A DNA stretch of 64,000 bases from Sulfurimonadaceae bacterium. GTDB taxonomy: Bacteria > Campylobacterota > Campylobacteria > Campylobacterales > Sulfurimonadaceae. The notes under the pieces are model-generated. The model ran no database searches. It was not told the origin of the DNA and saw only the letters and a list, made by a program, of their open reading frames with translations. The stretch is taken from assembly GCA_041548245.1 (NCBI GenBank), contig JBFESZ010000002.1:3502-67501 (forward strand), written 5' to 3'. Both the position numbers and the translations under genes were made by a program. Positions 16,358 to 33,768 of the stretch are shown here, piece by piece (within the stretch, counting starts at the first letter, position 1; the number at the start of each line of letters is the position of its first letter).

Positions 16358-18156
16358 TGTGCGCTATTTTTGGGATAATAGGCGAATATGATGGCTCCCT
16401 GGCCCGCAAGGCTCTTTTGCTACTTTCTCACAGGGGACCGGATTACTGTGGTATCGTCGAAGAGAAAGACCTCTTTATTGCGCATAACAGACTCAGTATT
16501 GTGGATCTAAGTACAGAAGCTTCTCAGCCTATGCGCAGGGGTGAGACGATACTCAGTTTCAACGGAGAAATATACAATTTCAAAGAACTCAAGAAACAGC
16601 TGAATATTCCATTTAAGACGCAAAGTGATACAGAGGTCATTTTGGCAGCGTATCAACAGTGGGGAATATCTTTTGTCGATCATCTTGAAGGGATGTTCGC
16701 CATCGCCTTATATGACAAAGGAAAACTGTATCTCTTTCGTGACCGTTTAGGGAAAAAACCTCTGTATTACATGCATACTCCGAATCAGTTCATTTTTGCT
16801 TCAGAGATAAAAGGGATTATCCCCTTCTTAAAGAAGAAACATATGAACCAAGATGCACTGCATGCTTATTTGAGTTATCTGGCTCCAACGCCTCCACAGA
16901 CATTCTATGAGAGTATTAAGAAGTTGGAATCTGGTCACTTTGCTTTGTATGAGGGTGGAAAGTTACAAGTCAAGGCCTATTATGATGTATTGCCATGTGA
17001 GATTACTATTGACACGGAAGAAGAGGCTTTAGCGACAATTGAGTCTATATTGAAAGAGAGTATTCAAAAGCGTCTGATGGGAGATGTCGAAGTCGCGTCT
17101 TTACTTTCAGGGGGCGTAGATTCCTCTTTGATAGCGGCGATGACATCTTTAATGGGAACGAAACTAAAAACTTTTTCTTTGGGATATGAAGGGTATAAAC
17201 AGTATGACGAGCGCAGATATGCAAAAGAGGTCGCAGAGCATATTGGTGTTGAGAATATTGACATTGAACTCTCCAAAGAAGACTTTTTTGAGAATATTGA
17301 TGCCGTTACCTATGCCTTGGATGAGCCGATAAACGATCCGGCTGCCATTCCGCTGTATATGCTTTTTAAAAGAATTAAAGCAGAAGGAATTAAGGTTGTA
17401 CTCAGTGGTGAAGGAGCCGATGAGCTCTTTTTAGGATATCGACAATATTTTGAATACTTGGATATAGAAAAAGCAGCAGAGCTGCATCACAAGAACTGGC
17501 TCAAAAAGTATTTTCGTTCAAACTTTTCTATGAACAGAGAGTGGGAGTGGTATAAACGTGTCTTTGAGTCACAGGTTCTGTTTAGAACAAGTGGTGAGAA
17601 GTTTACGGATATGCAAAAAAATATACTCATGCGTCAAAATGTCAAAGACGGTTTCTCTATGAAGTATCTGCAAAAGTACCGCGAAAGATATGAAGCCTAT
17701 GGAAATTCGGATGAGAGCCAATGGTACTCCTATGTTGATCTCAAGCAGTTTCAGGCTGAGCATTTTCTAAGTAAGCTTGATCGTGTTTCTATGGCGCATG
17801 GGATTGAAGGAAGAACACCATTTTTAGATCATAAACTGGTTGAAAAAGTATTTTCTATTGAACCAAGCCTGCGCTATCGTTCCGGTGTCACAAAAGGGCT
17901 GTTAAAAAAGGTGGCCAGTTCCTATTTGCCTGAGAGTATCATCAATAGAAAGAAAAAAGGATTTTCGTCTCCTTATCTGGAATGGCTTATTGAGGCAGAT
18001 GAGCTAGAGCGCATTTTAAAAGTTAATGAGCAGACAGGTCTCTTTCATGAAGAGGTCTTACAAGAGTATATAAATAGAGGAAAACAGGGGCGTTTTAAAC
18101 AGCATTTATGGGGACTGTACCTTTTTTCAAGGTGGTATGAGAAAGAGTTCTTATAA
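16357..18156 (+). CDS. asnB: Asparagine synthase (glutamine-hydrolysing) family protein
   Basis: Ntn amidotransferase start MCAIFG, and PP-loop SLLSGGVDSS in the synthetase domain. 599 aa. Confidence 0.88.
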   Translation: MCAIFGIIGEYDGSLARKALLLLSHRGPDYCGIVEEKDLFIAHNRLSIVDLSTEASQPMRRGETILSFNGEIYNFKELKKQLNIPFKTQSDTEVILAAYQQWGISFVDHLEGMFAIALYDKGKLYLFRDRLGKKPLYYMHTPNQFIFASEIKGIIPFLKKKHMNQDALHAYLSYLAPTPPQTFYESIKKLESGHFALYEGGKLQVKAYYDVLPCEITIDTEEEALATIESILKESIQKRLMGDVEVASLLSGGVDSSLIAAMTSLMGTKLKTFSLGYEGYKQYDERRYAKEVAEHIGVENIDIELSKEDFFENIDAVTYALDEPINDPAAIPLYMLFKRIKAEGIKVVLSGEGADELFLGYRQYFEYLDIEKAAELHHKNWLKKYFRSNFSMNREWEWYKRVFESQVLFRTSGEKFTDMQKNILMRQNVKDGFSMKYLQKYRERYEAYGNSDESQWYSYVDLKQFQAEHFLSKLDRVSMAHGIEGRTPFLDHKLVEKVFSIEPSLRYRSGVTKGLLKKVASSYLPESIINRKKKGFSSPYLEWLIEADELERILKVNEQTGLFHEEVLQEYINRGKQGRFKQHLWGLYLFSRWYEKEFL

Positions 18157-18167
18157 AAAGAGCCGTG

Positions 18168-18668
18168 TTATTCATCTTTTATCAGAAATGACAGCTCCAA
18201 AGTCCCGGAGATATAGTTGGCGAAGAAAGTGAGGACCTTTAGATCCTCGTCGCTAAAGTCTCCCTCTTCTTTGTTAAGTAGTTGTAAAAGTCCGATGACG
18301 GTTCGTTGTGAGTCAAAGATAGGCACCGTGATCATATTGACAGTCTCAAACCCGCTTTTCTTATCGATCCCGGCTAGAAAACGCTTGTCTTTGTAAGGTT
18401 CGTTTACGATCTGGGCCTCGCCTTTTGTGTAGGTGTCTCCGGCGATTCCCGAAGTTGTACTTATCGCTATTTTACCGATACCGTCGGCAAGTTTTGTCCA
18501 GAGCATATCGGCTTCTTTATCATACATGAAGATAGAACAACGTTTTGCATGGATGAGGTCTTTTGCCTGATCGGCTATGAGTATGAGTGCGTTGTCTAAT
18601 GAGGTATCCTGAAGCAGCTGTTTTCCGAATTCTGCTATTTTTTTATAAGAGTCTGCTTTTGCTGCCAT
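18168..18668 (-). CDS. Stand-alone GAF domain protein (paralogue 1)
   Basis: 166 aa, a single GAF-like domain. Clear paralogue of 21053-21559, with shared blocks KIAEFG, RCS(I/V)F(M/I)Y, LWT.LADG(I/V)G.I, GIAG, P(I/L).D, IG(L/V)LQLLNK..G.F..ED...LTFF..YISG..EL. Confidence 0.8.
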   Translation of the reverse strand: MAAKADSYKKIAEFGKQLLQDTSLDNALILIADQAKDLIHAKRCSIFMYDKEADMLWTKLADGIGKIAISTTSGIAGDTYTKGEAQIVNEPYKDKRFLAGIDKKSGFETVNMITVPIFDSQRTVIGLLQLLNKEEGDFSDEDLKVLTFFANYISGTLELSFLIKDE

Positions 18669-18757
18669 GCTTTTCCTTGATAATATATATGCTTATTAAA
18701 GTCATTGATTATATCGTAAAACGGTTACTTCTTTCTAGCCTTTGATACTCTTCAGTT

Positions 18758-19165
18758 TCATATTTCTTGAGAAAAACGCATTAGCACAGCCACAATGTCA
18801 TTCATTGAAAGCAGTCCTAAGAGTTCTCCATCGCTCGTGACAAGAAGACGGTTGACACCATGATGGGTCATCATCTGTGCAGCGTATTTAATATTAAGAT
18901 TAGCGGAGACTTGAATGATCGGTTTGGTGGCAATGTCGTAGACATTCAAAAGATCCATATCACCGTCTTGTGAAAATATGGCATTTAAAATATTGGTATA
19001 GGTAACAATGCCAAAAGCATCATGCGGGTTGTCCTTTTCGACAATAATAGATTTGACTTTTTTTTCCTGCATAATCTGAAGGCAGTTTCGGACACTTTCA
19101 ATCGAAGGGATGGTAATGATCTCTTCTCTTGGAATCATTATCTCTTGTACAGTGACGAGTTTCAT
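18758..19165 (-). CDS. CBS-pair domain protein (no other domain)
   Basis: 135 aa containing two CBS motifs (…VKSIIVEK…GIVTYTNIL and …VNRLLVTS.GELLGLLSMNDIV). AAGGAG SD lies 7 nt upstream. Confidence 0.85.
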   Translation of the reverse strand: MKLVTVQEIMIPREEIITIPSIESVRNCLQIMQEKKVKSIIVEKDNPHDAFGIVTYTNILNAIFSQDGDMDLLNVYDIATKPIIQVSANLNIKYAAQMMTHHGVNRLLVTSDGELLGLLSMNDIVAVLMRFSQEI

Positions 19166-19186
19166 AGCTACTCCTTTGTAGTTTCT

Positions 19187-19531
19187 TTAGAATGACTTCA
19201 TATTTTCCTGAAATTTACGCAATTGTTTGGCTGGAATACCTGAAAGATGTTCGATTGGCAGGGAAAAGACAAGACCATTACCGGACTGGTCAAGTTCCAG
19301 CTCTTGTGTAATGGCTTTGATGACCCTCAGGGCACTGCGCTTTTCCATGACAAATATCAGTACTGAATCAGCACGTTCATAAGTCAGACCAAAAAATGTT
19401 GTCTTGTCTCCTAGCCCTAAACCTCGACCTTTTAAAATAGTTACTCCACCGGCACCATTGGCTTTGGCAATATCAATTGCAGTATCTTCGTGTTCTTCAT
19501 CGACGATAGCGACGACAGTTGAAAACTTCAT
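19187..19531 (-). CDS. PII-like signal transduction protein (non-canonical T-loop)
   Basis: 114 aa with a beta-alpha-beta layout like GlnB: [10 protein letters not shown]..., [15 protein letters not shown]-terminal [12 protein letters not shown] (compare GDGKIFV..VE). It lacks the YRGAEY T-loop. Its ATG overlaps the TGA of the upstream membrane protein gene. Confidence 0.72.
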
Positions 19532-21048
19532 TGTTCATCTCCTTGTTCAGATTGTAATTTTTCTTTGTCAAGTTTTGCCAGATATTGGGTAATAACACCG
19601 TATCCCATGACAGTGATCATGGGAAAGAGCGAGGCAAAGGCGATAAGACCAAAGCCATCAATCAAAGGGCTTCGTCCTTCTATCTGAGTAGCCAGACCAA
19701 GTCCCAAAGCAGCGACCAGTGGTACGGTAACGGTTGAAGTCGTCACCCCGCCAGAGTCATAGGCAATGGGAATGATGTATTTCGGGGCCATAAATGTAAG
19801 GATAATAACGATGATATAACCTATGATGATGTAATAGTGTATAGGGTCTCCTTCCACTATTCTGTAGGCCCCCAAAGCAATACCGATGGCAACACCAAAG
19901 GCTACAGATATGCGTAGTACCATCTGGCGAATACGCTTTTGTGATATCTCTTCGACTTTCATTGCAATGGCTAAAAGTGCAGGTTCAGCCATTGTCGTTG
20001 AAAATCCGATGAGAAATCCAAAGAGATAAATATAAAAGAGATTCTCTTGGGATGTTAATTGCAAGGCCATCGTCTCTCCAATCGGAAAGAGTCCCATCTC
20101 AAGGCCAATGATAAAAGCATAAAGACCTATAATAACATAGAGGATTCCTGTGGAAATTTTTATCAGATTCTTCAACTCTTTTCGGATAATCATATATTGA
20201 AATAAGAAGATGACTACCAGAATAGGAATAACATCTTTAACAACATTGACAAATTCATAAAAAAGCTTTAATACCGAGAACTTTTCAACATTGACTTCAG
20301 CGGTTGATATTACTTCATGAGTGAGCAGAGCCGTTTCAAGATCAAGGTTGTAGACGACAACTCCATAGCCTTGAACAAAGATCATCGGTGTCAGTGAGGC
20401 AAAGGCAATAAGGCCAAAGCCATCTACGACAGGGTTACGACCACGTATGCTCGAAGCAAGACCGACACCTAGCGCCGCTACAAGAGGGACTGTTACCGTT
20501 GAAGTCGTTACTCCGCCAGAGTCATAGGCAAGGCCTACAATCTCTGCCGGAACGAAAAAAGTAAAGAGAACAACAAGGATATAGCCAGTGATAATATACA
20601 TATGAATAGGATGGCCGGTAATAATTCGCCAAGAGCCCAATGCTATGGCAAACCCTACGGAAAAGGCGACCGTAAGACGCAAGGCATCTGCATTGATACG
20701 CCCAAGAGATATCAATTGCGCTTTTTTGGCAATGGCGATGAGAGCGGGTTCGGCTACTGTGGTTGAAAACCCGATAGCAAAGGCAAAGATCAATAGCCAG
20801 ATCACAGAACCCTTTGCGGCAAACTCATGTGCCAGGTTCTCACCGATAGGAAAGATTCCGATCTCAAGCCCCTGAATAAAAATGGTCAGCCCGATCGCTA
20901 CAATGAGAAGTCCCAAAAGGATAGAGCTGAGGTCTTTGGGAACTTGTTGCAAGATAAAGATCTGAAAAAAAGCAATCACCAATACAATGGGCAAGAGGTC
21001 TTTAAACGAGTCACTTAAAAGTCTGGCAACAAGTCTGAGACTTTTCAT
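19528..21048 (-). CDS. Polytopic membrane protein, tandem internal duplication of a DUF1538-like unit
   Basis: 506 aa and highly hydrophobic. Two homologous halves each carry GFSTT(V/M)AEPAL(I/L)AIA and [20 protein letters not shown](V/L)GLA...[19 protein letters not shown]. The DUF1538 assignment is from memory of the YDSGGVT-type signature. Confidence 0.7.
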
Positions 21049-21052
21049 CGGA

Positions 21053-21559
21053 TTATGCTTTTTCCTCGTTAAAGTAGTTTGCGAGCTCTACATATCCACT
21101 GATATAGTGATTGAAAAATGTCAGTAAGCGTTTGTCTTCTTCATTGAACTCGCCATCTGTTTTATTTAACAGCTGTAGGACACCGATAGGCTTATCAAAG
21201 GCATCAAGTATCGGAGTAGCAATGATGTTTTGTGTGATATAACCGGTCCCATGGTCTATTTTTGATGAGAAACGATTATCAGAGTAGGGGTTGTTGACAA
21301 TCAACGTCCTTTTCTCTTGAAAAGCAGCCCCTGCGATACCTTCATCTGCAGCAATGTGAATCTCGCCAACACCATCAGCAAGTACGGTCCATAAACAATC
21401 TTTTTTTCTGTTGTAGATAAAGACGGAACAGCGATCCGCTTCCAATAGCTCTTTGGCATACGATGAGATGAGAGGAATAGCCAGTTCCAAAGATGGACGC
21501 GCTAACAGTTTTCTTCCAAACTCGGCAATTTTGGTAAATGATTTGATATTTTTGTACAT
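21053..21559 (-). CDS. Stand-alone GAF domain protein (paralogue 2)
   Basis: 168 aa. Paralogue of 18168-18668 (see that entry). Its stop is 4 nt upstream of the membrane protein start. Confidence 0.8.
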
Positions 21560-21673
21560 ATTTAATCTTACACTATATAACTAAAAATAATGTTATAAGC
21601 TGTGAATTTTATGAAATTCTTTTTTGAGGTTATAATATGCCAATAATTTTACAAAATATAGCATGGAGAGAAT

Positions 21674-22021
21674 ATGAGCTCGTATACAATTTGGCATAAC
21701 CCACGTTGTTCAAAATCACGTCAGACACTGGGGATATTAGAAGAAAAAGGTGCACAGACCGATGTCGTGAAGTATTTAGAAGATACTCCGTCGGTAGAAG
21801 AGATCAAAGAGGTCTTGAAAAAGTTGAATATTTCAGCACGTGAGCTGATGCGGACAAAAGAGGATGAGTATAAAGCACTTGGACTTAAGGATGAGATGGA
21901 TGAACAGAAGCTTATTGAAGCCATGGCATCGCATCCAAAACTTATTGAACGTCCTGTCGTGATCAGGGGGGACAAGGCGGTTCTTGGAAGACCGCCTGAA
22001 AAGGTTCTTGAACTCTTATAA
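21674..22021 (+). CDS. ArsC-family (glutaredoxin-type arsenate reductase / YfgD-like) protein
   Basis: IWHNPRCSKSRQTL N-terminal catalytic-Cys motif, and C-terminal LIERPVV. 115 aa. TATAAT at 21631-21636 is a plausible -10. Confidence 0.8.
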   Translation: MSSYTIWHNPRCSKSRQTLGILEEKGAQTDVVKYLEDTPSVEEIKEVLKKLNISARELMRTKEDEYKALGLKDEMDEQKLIEAMASHPKLIERPVVIRGDKAVLGRPPEKVLELL

Positions 22022-22023
22022 GG

Positions 22024-22422
22024 CTATTTTTTCAGGAACTCTTTGGAACTGATCCAATAGAAGAGGGCAATCGTAATGAGATAGAAGCTTCCCCAGACCA
22101 GATTGGAAAGCCATGAGTATGACAGCAAGGAGATATAAAAGAGCATACTTATAGCACTGAAGCCAAGATTACTGTAGGTAAAAAGAGCTTTTTTGTCTTC
22201 TACATCAAACTCTTTGACAACATATCCGACAGAGAGTTTTATGCCAAAATAGTAGAATAATAAAAGCCAAGCAAAACTTGCTATGGTCAAGGCAACAGGG
22301 TGAAGTTCGCTAAAAAGGGTTCGAAGCAGCCTATCGGTCACACTGAAGATAATAGGGAAAAGCACACCGGCAAAGATGACCAAAAGAATAGTCAATGCAA
22401 GGGTGGATATCCTGTATCTCAT
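22024..22422 (-). CDS. Hypothetical integral membrane protein
   Basis: 132 aa with about four hydrophobic helices. No family recognised. Confidence 0.5.
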   Translation of the reverse strand: MRYRISTLALTILLVIFAGVLFPIIFSVTDRLLRTLFSELHPVALTIASFAWLLLFYYFGIKLSVGYVVKEFDVEDKKALFTYSNLGFSAISMLFYISLLSYSWLSNLVWGSFYLITIALFYWISSKEFLKK

Positions 22423-27381: not shown

Positions 27382-29097
27382 ATGAGTGATTTGTTTCAGT
27401 TTGCCGAAGATAGGGAAGTGGTACAAGAGGCTTCAGGCAAGGCATGGAAGATCCTGGTTGTAGATGATGAGCCATCCGTTCATGATATTACGCGAAGTGC
27501 CTTAAAGCATGTCACCGTCGAAGGTCAAGCACTGGAATTGATTTATGCACTCAGTGGCGAAGAAGCGAAAAAGAAGCTTGAAGAGCATAAGAATATTGCT
27601 TTGGCCCTGATCGATGTCATTATGGAGACACCTTCTGCAGGATTGGATCTTGTCAATCATATCCGCAATGACCTCAAAAATGATTTTATCCGTCTTATTA
27701 TTCGCACGGGACAACCCCATGAAGTACCTGAACGCGACGTTATTGACCGTTATGACATCAACGATTATAAAGAGAAGACAGAACTGACAGTAGATAAGCT
27801 GTATACAGTCATACGCTCCGGCATCAAACAGTATATCCAACTCATTGAACTTTCCAATAAATACCAAGATGTCTATAAACAGATGACAACACATCCACTG
27901 ACCAAACTTCCAAACCGACAAAAACTCAATGAAGACTTAGATACGGACGGAGCAAAAGATCTTGTTCTGATTAACATTGATAATTTCAGTCTTATCAACG
28001 ATACGCAAGGTTTTGAAGTGGGTGATGAGCTTCTAAAACAGATGGGCGCTTTTTTGGTGAGTATGTATGCTGATGAAATGATGGTTTATCATCTTGAAGG
28101 AGATACCTTTGGTATCTTGTGTATGGATGAGCATATCAGTGAAGAGAGATTGGTCTGCATTAAAACAGATATTAATAAAATGACCTTTTTACTCGCTGGC
28201 GTTGAAAGTCGTTTGAGTGTGACGATGGGATTGGTCATGCGAGAAGAGGGAAACATCATACAAAAAGCACAGTTTGCTCTCAAAGAAGCACGTTCACATG
28301 GTAAGAACCGTATCAGCAAATATACGAAAGACATTAAAATCATACAGACCATACATCATAACTCAAAATGGACGAAACGTATTCAAGAAGCTTTGGCGAG
28401 CAGGAGTTTGAGAAGTTATTACCAACCTATTTTTGATATTAAAACAGGCAATCTTGTCAAGTATGAGTGTCTGGTACGTATGTTATATGATGATGAAATC
28501 ATTGGACCGAACGAATTTCTTGAGTGCGCAAAGATCAGTGGCCAATCGTACGCGATCTTTAAGTTTATGTTTGAAAATGCCTGTCAAAAAAGTAAAGGGT
28601 TTGATGGTCAGTTGACGATCAATATGACGGATTCGGACCTTCAAGAAGATGATCTGCTCTCATATGTGGAAGAGAGTTTTGAGAAGTATGATGTTGATCC
28701 TAAGCAGATAGGTATTGAGATACTAGAGCAAAAAAGTATCATGAAAAATGATCTGATAAGAAAGAATATCATTGCTTTGGCAGATAAAGGCATGGCTATC
28801 ATTATCGATGATTTTGGGATTGAATGTTCTAATTTTGGTCAGCTTGCCGATCTGCCTATCTCCATGCTGAAAATAGATGGAAGTTTCATAAAAGATTTGG
28901 ATATAAATGTCAAGCATAGGGTGATTGTAGAGTCGATTATCGAATTTGCGAAAAAGATGAATATTCCTATTGTAGCTGAGTTTGTGCATTCGCAAAAAAT
29001 TATGGATATAGTTAGAGATATGGGAGTACACTATGCCCAAGGCTATCATCTTGGAGAACCGCTTCCTGATCTTGTGGATTTGTCATACAGATATTAA
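27382..29097 (+). CDS. Response regulator with degenerate GGDEF and EAL domains (likely c-di-GMP phosphodiesterase)
   Basis: REC domain (LVVDDEP ... LIDVIM ... K). GGDEF-domain start HPLTKLPNRQ, but the signature reads LEGDTF. EAL-domain motifs ECLVR, N (TINM), EILE, DDFG, KIDG and QGY are present. Confidence 0.85.
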   Translation: MSDLFQFAEDREVVQEASGKAWKILVVDDEPSVHDITRSALKHVTVEGQALELIYALSGEEAKKKLEEHKNIALALIDVIMETPSAGLDLVNHIRNDLKNDFIRLIIRTGQPHEVPERDVIDRYDINDYKEKTELTVDKLYTVIRSGIKQYIQLIELSNKYQDVYKQMTTHPLTKLPNRQKLNEDLDTDGAKDLVLINIDNFSLINDTQGFEVGDELLKQMGAFLVSMYADEMMVYHLEGDTFGILCMDEHISEERLVCIKTDINKMTFLLAGVESRLSVTMGLVMREEGNIIQKAQFALKEARSHGKNRISKYTKDIKIIQTIHHNSKWTKRIQEALASRSLRSYYQPIFDIKTGNLVKYECLVRMLYDDEIIGPNEFLECAKISGQSYAIFKFMFENACQKSKGFDGQLTINMTDSDLQEDDLLSYVEESFEKYDVDPKQIGIEILEQKSIMKNDLIRKNIIALADKGMAIIIDDFGIECSNFGQLADLPISMLKIDGSFIKDLDINVKHRVIVESIIEFAKKMNIPIVAEFVHSQKIMDIVRDMGVHYAQGYHLGEPLPDLVDLSYRY

Positions 29098-29125: not shown

Positions 29126-30583
29126 ATGAGTCAAAAACATTATGAGGTTTTGATTATCGGTGCTGGTATTTCAGGTGCGGCTTTGGCCTATGAACTGGCA
29201 CGATATACCAATATCAAATCAATCGGTGTGATAGAAAAGTATGAAGATGTGGCTACTCTAAACAGTGCGGGTACTTCAAACTCGCAAACTATTCATGTTG
29301 GTGATATTGAGACGAACTATACGCTGGAAAAAGCGGCGATCACCAAAAGAACGGCAAAGATGGTGGAAAAGTATTGTCTGCAGTACCACTATCAGAATGA
29401 GATAATTTTTTCGCATCAGAAGATGGCACTTGGTGTAGGTGAGAAAGAAGTAGAGTTCTTATTGCACAGGTTTGAAGAGTTCTCGAAACTTTTTCCTTAT
29501 CTTGAAGTGTGGGATAAGGAAAAGCTCAAAGAGTTGGAACCTCGTGTTGTCTTTGATGAAAATGGGCAAGAGAGAGAAGAGCCAATCGTCGGGATAGGTG
29601 CAAAAGACCAATGGACCACTGTTGATTATGGAAAGATGGCAAAATCATTCCTGGAAAATGCCAAGGCACAAGAGGGCAAAAGCGTAGAGACATTTTTCAA
29701 CTCCGAAGTAACGAAAATTGAGAAAATGGATGACGGCAGTTATGTAGTGCATTGTTCAGACAGGATCTACAGCGCCGATTTTATTGTTGTCAATGCCGGG
29801 GCACATAGTTTGTTCTTAGCACATCAGATGGGCTATGGGCATAATTTGGGCTGTCTTCCGATAGCTGGAAGTTTTTATATGACTAATGAAAAAATGTTAA
29901 GGGGTAAGGTCTACATGATTCAAAACCCAAAACTCCCCTTTGCAGCTTTACATGGCGATCCGGATGTTCTTGCCGGTGAAAATACGCGTTTTGGACCAAC
30001 GGCTCTGGTTCTTCCTAAATTGGAACGTTATAAAAGCGGTACCTATATGGACTTTTGGAAGACGCTTCGTTTTGACAAAAATATTGCTATTGCTTTGTGG
30101 AAACTTCTCAAAGAGACTGATATCCGCTCTTATATCTTTAGAAACTTTCTGTTTGAGGTACCGATTTTGAACAAGTATCTTTTTTTGAAAGATGCACGCA
30201 AGATCGTACCCTCACTCAAACTGGATGAGTTTAGATATGCAAAAGGATTCGGCGGTGTGCGACCACAGGTTCTGAACAAGGATGAGCAGAAATTAATGCT
30301 GGGTGAGGCCTCGATTAATCCGGGTGAAGGGATTATCTTCAATATGACACCTTCTCCAGGGGCGACTTCATGCCTTGGTAATGCAGAAAGAGACGTAAGG
30401 TATATTGTCAACTATCTTGAGAAGAGTTTTGATGAAAAACTCTTTAATGATGAATTGACTGAAGGAGAGTATTGTGTCTTGCCAGAACCTTTGGCGTCAC
30501 AAAAAGCCCGTGTCAATCTAATCCGTGCGGAGATTGCCAGAACGCATGAGAAGTTCCATACGGACTATTCTCAACAGCGCTAG
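29126..30583 (+). CDS. mqo: Malate:quinone oxidoreductase
   Basis: FAD fold VLIIGAGISGAA. Length (485 aa) and overall pattern fit Mqo-family flavoproteins. Family call made by eye. Confidence 0.78.
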   Translation: MSQKHYEVLIIGAGISGAALAYELARYTNIKSIGVIEKYEDVATLNSAGTSNSQTIHVGDIETNYTLEKAAITKRTAKMVEKYCLQYHYQNEIIFSHQKMALGVGEKEVEFLLHRFEEFSKLFPYLEVWDKEKLKELEPRVVFDENGQEREEPIVGIGAKDQWTTVDYGKMAKSFLENAKAQEGKSVETFFNSEVTKIEKMDDGSYVVHCSDRIYSADFIVVNAGAHSLFLAHQMGYGHNLGCLPIAGSFYMTNEKMLRGKVYMIQNPKLPFAALHGDPDVLAGENTRFGPTALVLPKLERYKSGTYMDFWKTLRFDKNIAIALWKLLKETDIRSYIFRNFLFEVPILNKYLFLKDARKIVPSLKLDEFRYAKGFGGVRPQVLNKDEQKLMLGEASINPGEGIIFNMTPSPGATSCLGNAERDVRYIVNYLEKSFDEKLFNDELTEGEYCVLPEPLASQKARVNLIRAEIARTHEKFHTDYSQQR

Positions 30584-33500
30584 ATTGCTGAAGCCATCAA
30601 TTGGTTAATGGTCACGGTAATCTCTTTGAGACCTTTTGTCTCATAGTTTTCAAACACTTCAAGTTGTTCACGTGCTCCTGTGAATGCCTCATTTTCATTG
30701 GAGACGAAAGATGCAAAGGCATCTTCCGGGCTTTCGTCCACACGTTGAAAACTCAAAATCTTATGGGTGTAATGCACAACAAGAAAATCGATAAACTGCA
30801 GCATTTGACGTTTTAAGACACGTTCACTCTCCTGATTGACGGGAACATCATCCAAGGCCGTAAGCAATTCGATGATTTTAAACTCACTAACAATCATATA
30901 AAAGAGGGTCGCGACATCATCGAAACTGTGTTGTGTACTCTCTTTGATACTGATAGCGGCCACGGCAAAACGAAGGTATTCAATATGGGAGAAGAAACTG
31001 TTGAAATCATCTTTTCCAGGAATGAGTTCAACGGATTTGACATTGTTGATCTTGTCAAGCATTCTGAAAAGGTTGTCTCTGTTTCCCAGGATATGCGAAG
31101 CATCAATCTGATTTTTATTAAGATATTTGATCATCCATTTGACACTGAAGACCAGTGTCTTTTCCATCTCTGAAAGCAGGTGGTATTGTTGTTCACTTGG
31201 CATAATAAAGTCTTGTCTGAAGATTTCATGACGGATGTCATTCGTCCCAAACAGTTGAGAACAGATAAGATAAGATTTGATCTTGTTAATAAACTTCTCT
31301 TCACCGATACGCTCAAAATCACTGACAAAACTCACACCTTGAAAATTGATGACCTTATCGGCGATAATCGTAGCAATAAGTTCACGTTTTAACGGATGTT
31401 GCGAAATCTCATGTTCATAGATCCCGACAAAAGATTTTGGAAAATATTTGTATAGATAGTTCAAAGAGAAATTATCATCAACCAAGCTGGAGTTCAACAG
31501 AAGGTTTTTGACAAATATCTTGGCATAAGAGAGCATGGAGGCGAGAATAGGACGAACGATAGCCCCTTCCTTGTCGAGCATGGCATTGACGTTTTCATCC
31601 TTGGGGATATAAAAATCTTTACGCTTGAAAGCAGGAATATAGGTGTCAAGAATTTTGATGGCTTCAAGAAAATATTTGATATAGCTTTTAGAAAGTCTTT
31701 CGTCCCGCGATATGGCCAGACTTTGATTGTAGTTGTCCCATAAGACAAGGTTAACTACCTGTTCTGTCAGGCTTGTGAGGGTTTTGTTACGCTCTTCTTC
31801 ACTCAGCAGTCCCTTAGCCTGAATCGTATTCAGCAAGATTTTCAGGTTGACTTCATGGTCTGAGATGTTAACACCGGCAGAGTTGTCAATCCCGTCAAGG
31901 TTTATACGCCCACCTGCAAGAGCATACTCTATACGTGCACGTTGTGTGAACCCAAGGTTTCCCCCTTCACAGACAGAGTAGGCTTTGAGTTCATTGGCAT
32001 CGATACGGACACTTTCATTCTGTTTATCTCCGATATCAAGGCTGCTTTCATCAGAACTTTTGACATAGGTTCCAACCCCTCCATTGAAAAGCATGTCGAC
32101 TTTCATGCAAAGCAGTTTTTTGGACAGCTCCTCTCCGCTCAAGGTATTGCGGGTTGTACCGACCATCTTCTTGATCTCATCAGAAAGTTCTATAGATTTA
32201 TCCGAACGAAGAAAGACGCCACCTCCTTTGGAGATAAGTCCTCTGTTGTAAGCACTCCATGAACCGTCTTTGGATATAAAGAGTCGCTGTCTCTCTTCGT
32301 AAGCAGTTATGGGAATAGGGTCTGGATCGATAAATATCTCTTTATGGCTGATCGCAGCAAGAAGTTTAAAGGCTTTTGACTCGAGCATACCGTTGCCAAA
32401 GACGTCTCCATTCATCGATCCTAATCCGACAACAGTGATTGAGTCTTTATAAAAGTCAACTCCTTTTTCAATGAAAAAACGCTGTGTAGAGATAATAGCA
32501 CCTTTTGCTGTTATTCCCAGATCTTTGTGACCAAATCCGTTGGACCCTCCACTTGCAAAGGCATCCTTTAACCAAAAATTTCGCTCAACTGAGATGTTAT
32601 TGGCTACATCACTCATCTGGGCAGTGCCTTTGTCAGCCGCAACAACAAAGTAGGTGTCGTCATCATCGTAGGCAATGACATGTTCATGTCTGACAACTTC
32701 ATTATTGACTACATTGTCTACCATATCCAAGAGGTTATGGATAAACTCTGTATAGATCTTTTGAAAATACTCTTTTGTGATCTCCGATCTGTCCTTTCGA
32801 ATGATAAAACCGCCCTTTGCTCCATCGGGAACGATAATCGAGTTTTTACCCTCCTGGGTGATCATTAATGATTTTATTTCTGTACGATAATCTTCATGCC
32901 GCTCGCTCCATCTGAGCCCGCCACGGCTAATTTTGCTCATGCGAAGGTGGAGTCCGCTGAACTCTTTATGATAGACAAATATCTCAAATTTTGGCTGAAT
33001 GCCTTTAAGGTGTTCACTGAAAAGTTCTGTATGGATTTTTAAAGAAATTGCTTCTTTATCACAAAAATAGTTTGTACGTAGAAGTGACTGCAATAGTGTA
33101 TAGGTCAGTTTTAAAATTTTATCTTCAAGAATATTGGGGACAGCTTTAATATTCTCTTCGATCTCTTCGCTGATACATTTGAGAGAAGCGACTCTCTGTT
33201 TCGCATGTGGATCAAATTTACAGATGAAATAATCGACAAAGAGTTTGGTGATATGATGATGATGGTTGAGCGTTTGGATGATTCCGCTGGCACTGAGGCT
33301 TAAAACAGCTTGATCCAGGTACTCAATAATGGCCCGCATAAGAGTGACCTGGCGAAGGGAAAGGTTTTCTTTGTATACAAGGGAATATAGGCGGCATTTA
33401 TCAAAACTTTTCCCTAAAAGAGCCAGAGAAATAATATGTTCAATGTTCTCTTTGGATGATTTTAGTTTATCAAGTTCATCAATATCAAGGTTAAAGCGGT

Positions 33501-33768
33501 TGACAAAAACAGTGATGTTGTTTTTTGCAATGGAGTAGGTGATCTCATCGATAATGCTAAAACCAAAGTCATGTAAAACAGGTGTCATACTAGAGAGGTA
33601 AAGCCTCTCTGTAGAGTATATTTTAATGGATACATTGTCTTTGTCAAGAAAGATCTTGCTTACAATGGTCTCTATTTTTATCTGATTAAAAAGTTTGGAC
33701 GAGATTTTAAGATCATCAGATCGTAAAAGCTGTGAACAGACCGCATCGATATCAGAAATTTCAGCCAT
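30580..33768 (-). CDS. NAD-specific glutamate dehydrogenase, 'large' bacterial family (short ~1060-aa form)
   Basis: Catalytic core ISRGGLRWS ... PDGAKGGF, and dinucleotide fold VVGLGSMNGDVFGNG, embedded in a 1062-aa protein with long helical C-terminal extensions as in Bac_GDH enzymes. Confidence 0.8.
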   Translation of the reverse strand: MAEISDIDAVCSQLLRSDDLKISSKLFNQIKIETIVSKIFLDKDNVSIKIYSTERLYLSSMTPVLHDFGFSIIDEITYSIAKNNITVFVNRFNLDIDELDKLKSSKENIEHIISLALLGKSFDKCRLYSLVYKENLSLRQVTLMRAIIEYLDQAVLSLSASGIIQTLNHHHHITKLFVDYFICKFDPHAKQRVASLKCISEEIEENIKAVPNILEDKILKLTYTLLQSLLRTNYFCDKEAISLKIHTELFSEHLKGIQPKFEIFVYHKEFSGLHLRMSKISRGGLRWSERHEDYRTEIKSLMITQEGKNSIIVPDGAKGGFIIRKDRSEITKEYFQKIYTEFIHNLLDMVDNVVNNEVVRHEHVIAYDDDDTYFVVAADKGTAQMSDVANNISVERNFWLKDAFASGGSNGFGHKDLGITAKGAIISTQRFFIEKGVDFYKDSITVVGLGSMNGDVFGNGMLESKAFKLLAAISHKEIFIDPDPIPITAYEERQRLFISKDGSWSAYNRGLISKGGGVFLRSDKSIELSDEIKKMVGTTRNTLSGEELSKKLLCMKVDMLFNGGVGTYVKSSDESSLDIGDKQNESVRIDANELKAYSVCEGGNLGFTQRARIEYALAGGRINLDGIDNSAGVNISDHEVNLKILLNTIQAKGLLSEEERNKTLTSLTEQVVNLVLWDNYNQSLAISRDERLSKSYIKYFLEAIKILDTYIPAFKRKDFYIPKDENVNAMLDKEGAIVRPILASMLSYAKIFVKNLLLNSSLVDDNFSLNYLYKYFPKSFVGIYEHEISQHPLKRELIATIIADKVINFQGVSFVSDFERIGEEKFINKIKSYLICSQLFGTNDIRHEIFRQDFIMPSEQQYHLLSEMEKTLVFSVKWMIKYLNKNQIDASHILGNRDNLFRMLDKINNVKSVELIPGKDDFNSFFSHIEYLRFAVAAISIKESTQHSFDDVATLFYMIVSEFKIIELLTALDDVPVNQESERVLKRQMLQFIDFLVVHYTHKILSFQRVDESPEDAFASFVSNENEAFTGAREQLEVFENYETKGLKEITVTINQLMASAI

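Follow-up and report, generated by a model that had tools for sequence, protein, structure and literature searches.

Why would a bacterium encode a membrane protein amid four small ligand-binding proteins? The question is raised by a cluster of five genes in a 64,000-nucleotide (nt) stretch of DNA, hereafter the window, from a member of the Sulfurimonadaceae (Campylobacterota; contig JBFESZ010000002.1). Open reading frame (ORF) calls place all five on the minus strand, in the order GAF-A, a polytopic membrane protein with two DUF1538 domains, a PII-like protein, a CBS pair and GAF-B. We lean towards reading the membrane protein as a secondary ion transporter of the DUF1538/UmpAB family, most likely a monovalent cation/H+ antiporter, that would be gated by a dedicated nucleotide-sensing PII-like protein, with the CBS and GAF proteins as added inputs. 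The genes and domains listed in the initial annotation, which had been made from the letters alone, were reproduced by ORF calls together with Pfam, and its gene junctions by rereading the sequence. Pfam and NCBIfam detect no domains in the five proteins beyond GAF, DUF1538, P-II and CBS; neither shows a kinase, DNA-binding or catalytic domain in any of them, which bears out the description of a cluster without a classical output domain. It had been argued on this ground that the soluble sensors act on the membrane protein itself, and this protein is indeed their most plausible target.

How general is the pairing? In the window, the gene for the 506-amino-acid (aa) membrane protein (19528-21048) is followed by that for the 114-aa PII-like protein (19187-19531), and the stop codon of the former overlaps the start codon of the latter in an ATGA (19528-19531), suggestive of translational coupling. 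A genome scan yielded 575 relatives, the best 80 species-level loci of which were analysed with custom hidden Markov models. At 77 of these loci the 3′ side of the transporter could be assessed, and 73 of the 77 carry a PII-like gene or domain there, 53 as a separate gene and 20 within the same ORF. The 4-nt overlap between membrane-protein stop and PII start recurs in 34 of 52 loci, and in 45 of the 52 the two lie within a few bases of each other. The single-ORF versions (~640-678 aa, from 20 species), confirmed by Pfam to consist of two DUF1538 domains and one P-II domain, are plentiful in Sulfurimonas (S. aquatica and Ca. S. baltica among others). Where the PII-like gene stands alone, a CBS-pair gene comes next in 48 of 50 loci that could be assessed, with PII-to-CBS spacers ranging from -4 to +49 nt; the spacer in the window measures 21 nt and contains an AAGGAG Shine-Dalgarno sequence (19171-19176). 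This trio of transporter, PII-like and CBS genes is found with both fused and split (UmpA/UmpB-like) transporters and occurs in Campylobacterota, Gamma- and Betaproteobacteria, Desulfobacterota, Nitrospirales, Ca. Scalindua and Aquificota, while the linkage of PII and transporter was also seen in Nitrospirota, Planctomycetota and an actinobacterial-like contig. The minimal widespread unit is the transporter plus the PII-like protein, the latter being the sole partner in many lineages.

Loci that depart from this pattern are few. In three of the four without PII, the C-terminal position is occupied by a fused cytidylate-kinase-like P-loop domain instead: these are ~750-aa fusions of two DUF1538 domains with a cytidylate-kinase-like/AAA_18 domain in Woeseiaceae (L055:1143-3395 and L059:6052-8304) and Halieaceae (L072:5881-8157), and no PII-like gene follows them. 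A separate observation concerns a contig labelled Candidatus Peribacteria, of the candidate phyla radiation (L037), whose double-DUF1538 gene is 61% identical to that of the window and has no PII-like gene after it; this may be a mis-binned Campylobacterota contig. A conserved third partner up- or downstream was sought across phyla and discarded as an option, the flanking genes being heterogeneous. Instead, the extra partner differs by lineage and may be a GAF-GGDEF-EAL protein (Thioalkalivibrio), a KtrA-like RCK protein, a second PII-like paralogue or an MgtE_N+CBS protein. KtrA-like RCK genes (TrkA_N plus TrkA_C, ~233 aa) stand directly upstream, on the same strand, of transporter-PII fusions in Arcobacter-type Campylobacterota (L020:5201-5905, L028:2383-3084, L029:5216-5917, L036:5302-5997).

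Does the five-gene set as a whole form the conserved unit? The nearest named relatives are Sulfurimonadaceae metagenome-assembled genomes (L009, at 89% identity), and locus L089 reproduces the entire five-gene layout and its flanks, with a membrane protein 84% identical to ours. Because L089 shares genes and context, and because the core three genes recur across phyla, the arrangement is not a matter of chance. GAF-only genes, however, flank the cassette solely in the Sulfurimonadaceae loci L009-L011 (3 of the 80 species loci), L089 and L090, and in L010 and L090 both GAF genes are kept and the CBS gene is lost. The conserved unit is hence the transporter with its PII-like protein, usually together with a CBS protein, and not the set of five. 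Checking co-occurrence across genomes, as had been proposed at the outset, upheld the core three in this way and limited the GAF-only genes to close Sulfurimonadaceae relatives; gating by up to three sensors, as first envisaged, does not hold as a general property, with GAFs in one narrow subclade, CBS sometimes lost and PII alone in many lineages.

Could these proteins be mere neighbours, that is, independent small ligand-binding proteins with no functional tie to the membrane protein? The comings and goings of GAF and CBS partners between lineages would agree with this, as would the 89-nt gap ahead of GAF-B (18669-18757), within which a consensus scan finds a promoter-like site (TAGAAA-N18-TATAAT at 18737-18708, 10 of 12 consensus matches). 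GAF-B may accordingly have a promoter of its own, but since promoter-like sites in the region are no more numerous than expected from shuffled sequence, the site is weak evidence of one. Proteins without a common task would hardly be expected to show PII adjacency at 73 of 77 loci across phyla, a conserved 4-nt stop/start overlap and repeated, independent fusion architectures, in the form of C-terminal fusions and of double and triple PII-like tandems that always lie beside DUF1538. We regard simple co-location as a highly improbable account of the cluster, and as very unlikely for the PII-like gene in particular.

What kind of PII protein is it? The window protein matches Pfam PF00543 with 30.3 bits (cut-off 25). 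A profile of its family, searched against the Protein Data Bank (PDB), retrieves the NifI-type entry 9p1x (1.4e-8) and many GlnB and GlnK structures (~1e-4) over residues 4-100, with SbtB at 0.08; by comparison with solved structures, the family is clearly PII. Its T-loop is short and conserved ([18 protein letters not shown] in the window protein), ~5 residues shorter than that of GlnB and GlnK, and carries the motif K-T-F-F-G-L-T-Y-E, with an aromatic FFG in place of YRG; split-type members do not conserve the aligned Tyr. The glycine-rich cleft positions are conserved subfamily-wide (G26, G29, T31, G37, G48, G86 and G98 across 283 PII-like domains), and retained nucleotide binding would fit this pattern. 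9p1x, a nitrogenase-NifI complex, proved unrelated to the cassette as a literature lead, as did a "valve plug" PII preprint, a genome survey of the reductive tricarboxylic acid (rTCA) cycle and a methanogen preprint based on randomly barcoded transposon sequencing (RB-TnSeq).

The same profile detects 758 clusters (at 50% identity) with E <= 1e-10. Beyond single-domain forms, its best matches are mostly proteins of two tandem PII-like domains (205-260 aa), and a few consist of three (345-357 aa; examples of tandem proteins are P0417-P0558). All four double or triple tandem proteins that could be placed in a genome lie directly behind DUF1538 genes (among them L092:5001-6074, L093:1554-2291 and L095:5001-5777). 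In L092, the gene of a triple chain, perhaps a pseudo-trimer joined covalently, has a 4-nt overlap with the stop of the transporter gene, and an MgtE_N+CBS protein comes next. The covalent fusions and triple-tandem chains argue for a trimeric PII unit in direct physical association with the transporter. Together, these patterns raise the idea that this large and unrecognised subfamily (~758 clusters), in its single, double- or triple-tandem and C-terminally fused forms, serves solely as the regulatory subunit of DUF1538/UmpAB transporters, a generalisation that we consider evenly balanced between right and wrong. A second, more divergent PII-like paralogue (108-122 aa) is encoded near the cassette in Thioalkalivibrio, Ectothiorhodospira and a few other loci (L002:6100-6468, L003:986-1354, L086:5590-5958, L004:5889-6242, the last divergently oriented, L063:7146-7472 and L068:340-696).

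The obvious precedents are GlnK-AmtB and SbtB-SbtA, to which the initial annotation had already pointed. For the PII-like protein the analogy is apt: as in those systems, the gene right behind a transporter gene encodes a small PII-superfamily protein in which the T-loop and the glycines of the nucleotide cleft are conserved, and the genetic linkage typical of them is found here in the near-universal adjacency, the conserved start/stop overlap suggestive of coupling and the natural fusions in 20 species. By analogy, the mode of action may be the same too. The DUF1538 systems differ in that they usually add a CBS subunit, in that covalent transporter-PII fusions and double or triple tandem PII chains exist, and in their presumed cargo, a cation as opposed to ammonium (AmtB) or bicarbonate (SbtA). 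The transporter itself is unrelated to Amt and SbtA, having DUF1538 as its only Pfam domain and no sequence or structure match to solved transporters.

What, then, does the membrane protein carry? The initial annotation knew DUF1538 as a family of unassigned function, which is out of date, and had named kinship with a characterised transporter family as a point that would speak against it; at the family level, this kinship is real. The protein matches PF07556 in two stretches (472.8 bits, cut-off 22.6) and, over its full length, both the UmpA (NF041627) and the UmpB (NF041628) model of NCBIfam. UmpAB of Halomonas zhaodongensis is a Na+(Li+,K+)/H+ antiporter, as demonstrated in everted vesicles (PMC5484666). 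Scanned separately, the N-terminal half of our protein scores higher with UmpA (299 bits, UmpB 209) and the C-terminal half with UmpB (268 bits, UmpA 231), so that the UmpA-then-UmpB order of the two-subunit UmpAB is present within a single 506-aa chain. Each half stays well below the equivalog cut-off of its model (299 of 490 bits for UmpA, 268 of 500 for UmpB). A full-length UmpA score of 517 bits, an apparent equivalog pass, was discarded after the halves had been scanned, because it sums two repeats on one model. By these scores, the window protein is a fusion in UmpA-UmpB order, homologous at the level of the family rather than an equivalog. None of the best 80 loci reaches the UmpA or UmpB equivalog score, and the split subunits nearest the UmpA model (324-385 bits) all have PII and CBS genes downstream.

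The two DUF1538 repeats align without gaps at ~50% identity and share with each other, and with UmpAB, the invariant motifs E-x-G-x-F-P-x-G, G-F-S-T-T-x-A-E-P-A-L and [16 protein letters not shown]. Acidic residues recur in these acidic/polar motifs in both repeats (E62/E317, the AEPA glutamates E100/E355, and D176/D431 of YDSGGVTT). In an AlphaFold2 model (predicted local distance difference test, pLDDT, 81.6; predicted template modelling score 0.80), the two strongest motifs sit at breaks between short helices (82-98/101-113 and 168-180/186-199, plus the repeat-2 equivalents), from which we infer ion-binding discontinuous helices or hairpins. A SbtA-, AmtB- or NhaA-like fold was rejected: a Foldseek search of this model against the PDB returned no significant neighbour (best E 0.02, TM <= 0.21), and phmmer found no match among PDB sequences. 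With helices this short and broken, membrane topology is ambiguous by hydropathy and positive-inside counting; the C-terminus is probably cytoplasmic, because nucleotide-binding domains are fused there in relatives. We designate the protein a putative cation/proton transporter. One further family member, P0001 (759 aa, from a 2.5-kb ENA contig), contains three DUF1538 repeats in one chain (three Pfam stretches), which may be either genuine or an assembly or frameshift artefact of the short contig.

The conserved acidic/polar motifs in both repeats, the salt- and alkali-adapted carriers and the antiport activity of UmpAB all favour a cation/proton exchanger. Might the same regulatory logic nevertheless serve another cargo, such as a different ion or a carbon- or nitrogen-related solute, with antiport by UmpAB being a side activity or specific to its clade? 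UmpAB is the single family member ever assayed, the window halves score below the equivalog cut-offs, and no solved fold relative constrains the substrate. Known PII-type partners gate ammonium and bicarbonate carriers, and many of the organisms that carry the cassette are sulfur-oxidising autotrophs. The intramembrane Glu/Asp motifs conserved in both repeats, on the other hand, fit cation or proton binding. Moreover, recurrent neighbours include RCK, Na_H_Exchanger/TrkA and Castor/Pollux-like channel genes and not genes of carbon or nitrogen assimilation, and the host range consists mostly of salt- and alkali-adapted genera; marine, halophilic or alkaliphilic ones prevail among the carriers (Marinobacter, Halomonas, Thioalkalivibrio, Ectothiorhodospira, Idiomarina, Shewanella, Sulfurimonas and Arcobacter). 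Of the alternatives, a different cargo deserves to be taken seriously, yet we consider it rather unlikely.

Returning to a cation/proton transporter under PII control, what would the CBS and GAF proteins contribute? The 135-aa CBS protein (18758-19165; Pfam CBS 74.4 bits) has two CBS stretches and, with them, the ribose-binding element of a Bateman module (G117-L-L-S-M-N-D123); in this G-h-h-S-x-x-D motif, G117 is conserved in 98% and D123 in 94% of 49 cassette CBS proteins. Its closest solved relative is the CBS module of the cyanobacterial CBS-CP12 protein (5nmu, 2e-16). We propose it as a second regulatory subunit. Cytoplasmic adenosine-nucleotide-binding modules also control ion flux in CBS-regulated (MgtE, CNNM/CorC, CLC, OpuA) and RCK-regulated (KtrAB, TrkAH, Kef) transporters, and MgtE_N+CBS and KtrA-like RCK genes are indeed found beside some DUF1538 genes. 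Unlike the modules of CBS-regulated transporters, the CBS pair of the window is a free-standing protein and accompanies a PII-like subunit.

The two GAF-only proteins, GAF-A (168 aa, 21053-21559; Pfam GAF 54 bits) and GAF-B (166 aa, 18168-18668; 56.4 bits), are paralogues with 48% identity and, since they are confined to a narrow Sulfurimonadaceae subclade, represent lineage-specific accessory sensors. Their best solved relatives are the GAF domain of the HD-GYP protein PmGH (4mcw, 1.4e-29 for GAF-A) and those of CyaB2 and PDE2A; with NKFDE-type GAFs of cyclic-nucleotide phosphodiesterases and cyclases they share the NK-x4-F-x3-D motif (GAF-A residue 132). The motif is incomplete, its final Glu being replaced by Lys in GAF-A and Leu in GAF-B, and in further contrast to these relatives the window proteins lack a catalytic partner domain. 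NCBIfam gives weak NifA/PtsP GAF matches only. Free methionine-(R)-sulfoxide reductases of the GAF type have three conserved catalytic cysteines; such an identity was rejected for GAF-A and GAF-B, which contain two and one cysteines, respectively, and have no msrC-type match in NCBIfam. Elsewhere in the window, a 571-aa REC-GGDEF-EAL protein is encoded on the plus strand (27382-29097). The organism therefore has cyclic di-GMP (c-di-GMP) signalling, which might have a bearing on what the GAF-only proteins bind. In Thioalkalivibrio denitrificans, a 720-aa GAF-GGDEF-EAL protein is encoded directly after the CBS gene (L002:8847-11009), which would link the cassette to c-di-GMP turnover in that lineage, in contrast to the GAF-only proteins of the window.

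These observations also bear on the possibility that the signal runs in reverse. The membrane protein would then serve for sensing or docking, as a "transceptor": it would sequester the PII-like, CBS and GAF proteins or release them to act on unlinked cytoplasmic targets. There is precedent in the action of AmtB-bound GlnK on DraG, and the lack of an output domain in the cluster, the GAF-GGDEF-EAL enzyme behind the CBS gene in Thioalkalivibrio, the c-di-GMP enzymes of the window genome and the relatively frequent occurrence of histidine-kinase, PAS and GGDEF genes downstream all point the same way. Release to distant targets fits poorly, however, with a PII domain that is covalently tethered to the transporter in 20 species. 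Nor do the heterogeneous neighbours on either side include a recurrent soluble target, and the simplest widespread unit consists of the transporter and the PII-like protein alone. We judge a reversed signal improbable.

How might a PII-gated exchanger work? From the above, we infer the following sequence of events. The transporter, a UmpA-UmpB fusion, would exchange Na+, K+ or Li+ for H+ and possess its own cytoplasmic regulatory subunits. Through the ATGA overlap, the PII-like protein would be made in step with the transporter and in a fixed ratio to it. A PII-like trimer would take up an adenine-type nucleotide in the clefts between its subunits, and from the cytoplasmic side the short conserved T-loop would dock on the transporter to switch transport on or off, much as in GlnK-AmtB and SbtB-SbtA. 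The CBS pair would act on the same complex as a second, usually co-inherited sensor of the adenosine-nucleotide type. Finally, the two GAF-only paralogues would be a recent addition in Sulfurimonadaceae, contributing another small-molecule input, perhaps a cyclic nucleotide. The recurrent exchange for, or addition of, other nucleotide-binding modules elsewhere (the nucleoside monophosphate (NMP) kinase-like C-terminal domain, the KtrA-like RCK protein and the MgtE_N+CBS protein) speaks for energy charge or a nucleotide messenger as the sensed signal.

Several points weigh against this mechanism. Canonical GlnB and GlnK have a full-length T-loop with a modifiable Tyr51/Ser49 as well as the basic residues K90, R101 and R103, which hold the ATP phosphates. 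The window protein is not of this canonical kind: besides the shorter T-loop of the PII-like family, alignments show the B-loop K90 replaced by L, V or I and no Arg at the C-terminal positions. Binding between PII-like protein and transporter is predicted from gene order and fusions, and the AlphaFold2 model of a natural fusion, P0295 of S. aquatica, is too weak to show docking (mean pLDDT 67, with the linker, 492-536, and the PII domain mostly <50); the PII domain in it follows a beta-alpha-beta / beta-alpha pattern, at pLDDT below 60, and an attempt to read a docking site from the model was uninformative. Because each half of the window protein misses its equivalog cut-off, the substrate may differ from that of UmpAB. 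KNabc complementation screens can, in our judgement, yield side activities, and some lineages do without the CBS partner, some without the GAF partners. Lastly, a clone ending at umpB gave active UmpAB in E. coli (PMC5484666), so that regulators are not required for activity; the same result fits a gating or inhibitory role of the partners rather than an obligatory one. The UmpAB publication (PMC5484666) makes no mention of PII-like, CBS or GAF partners; antiport has been shown there for the Halomonas proteins alone, and the fused type of the window is known from sequence.

At the ends of the cluster, the GAF-A stop and the ATG of the membrane-protein gene are 4 nt apart, and the intergenic region upstream of GAF-A (21560-21673), which is common to a divergent ArsC-family gene and contains a promoter-like site at 21643-21616, is likely the promoter region of the cluster. 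Control of the operon by a riboswitch or another kind of RNA element was considered and rejected, with no Rfam family matching across 17900-22100. The flanking genes comprise the ArsC-family gene, an asparagine-synthase-like gene, dcd and accBC. Three other minus-strand genes in the window are recorded here in their own right: one for a 296-aa protein without a Pfam match, syntenic in L089 and L090 (14762-15652), one for a 132-aa predicted membrane protein, likewise without a Pfam match (22024-22422), and one for a large, 1062-aa NAD-specific glutamate dehydrogenase of the bacterial type with ACT-like regulatory domains (30580-33768).

What would a PII-gated cation/proton transporter mean? Few signalling proteins are as widespread as the PII proteins, and yet to our knowledge only two PII-transporter partnerships, those with the ammonium carrier AmtB and the bicarbonate carrier SbtA, are understood mechanistically. 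The initial annotation was aware of no mechanism with this architecture. That stands for the pairing itself: full-text literature mentioning DUF1538 (subscription-only literature lay outside the search) contains no description of DUF1538 with PII, CBS or GAF partners, and the pairing of a DUF1538 transporter with a PII-like protein appears to be undescribed. It does not stand for the principle, as PII control of a neighbouring transporter is known. As far as we can tell, what is new is the transporter family under such control, a PII-like subfamily with fused and tandem forms, and the CBS/GAF layer. If true, this would be a third, independent PII-transporter partnership, without precedent for a cation/proton exchanger or for a fold that lacks a solved relative, and interchangeable extra sensors (CBS, GAF, RCK, NMP-kinase-like) would adjust a single ion transporter to energy or second-messenger state. 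Functional work on the family, which amounts to the one study of UmpAB, would then have assayed a transporter without its likely regulators, and the natural fusion proteins offer a ready sample for cryo-electron microscopy of this membrane fold. A PII-like partner for a cation/proton transporter would explain the role of hundreds of proteins now annotated as "P-II family nitrogen regulator" or "transcriptional regulator", and it would extend the "PII plug" principle from carbon and nitrogen supply to ion and pH homeostasis.

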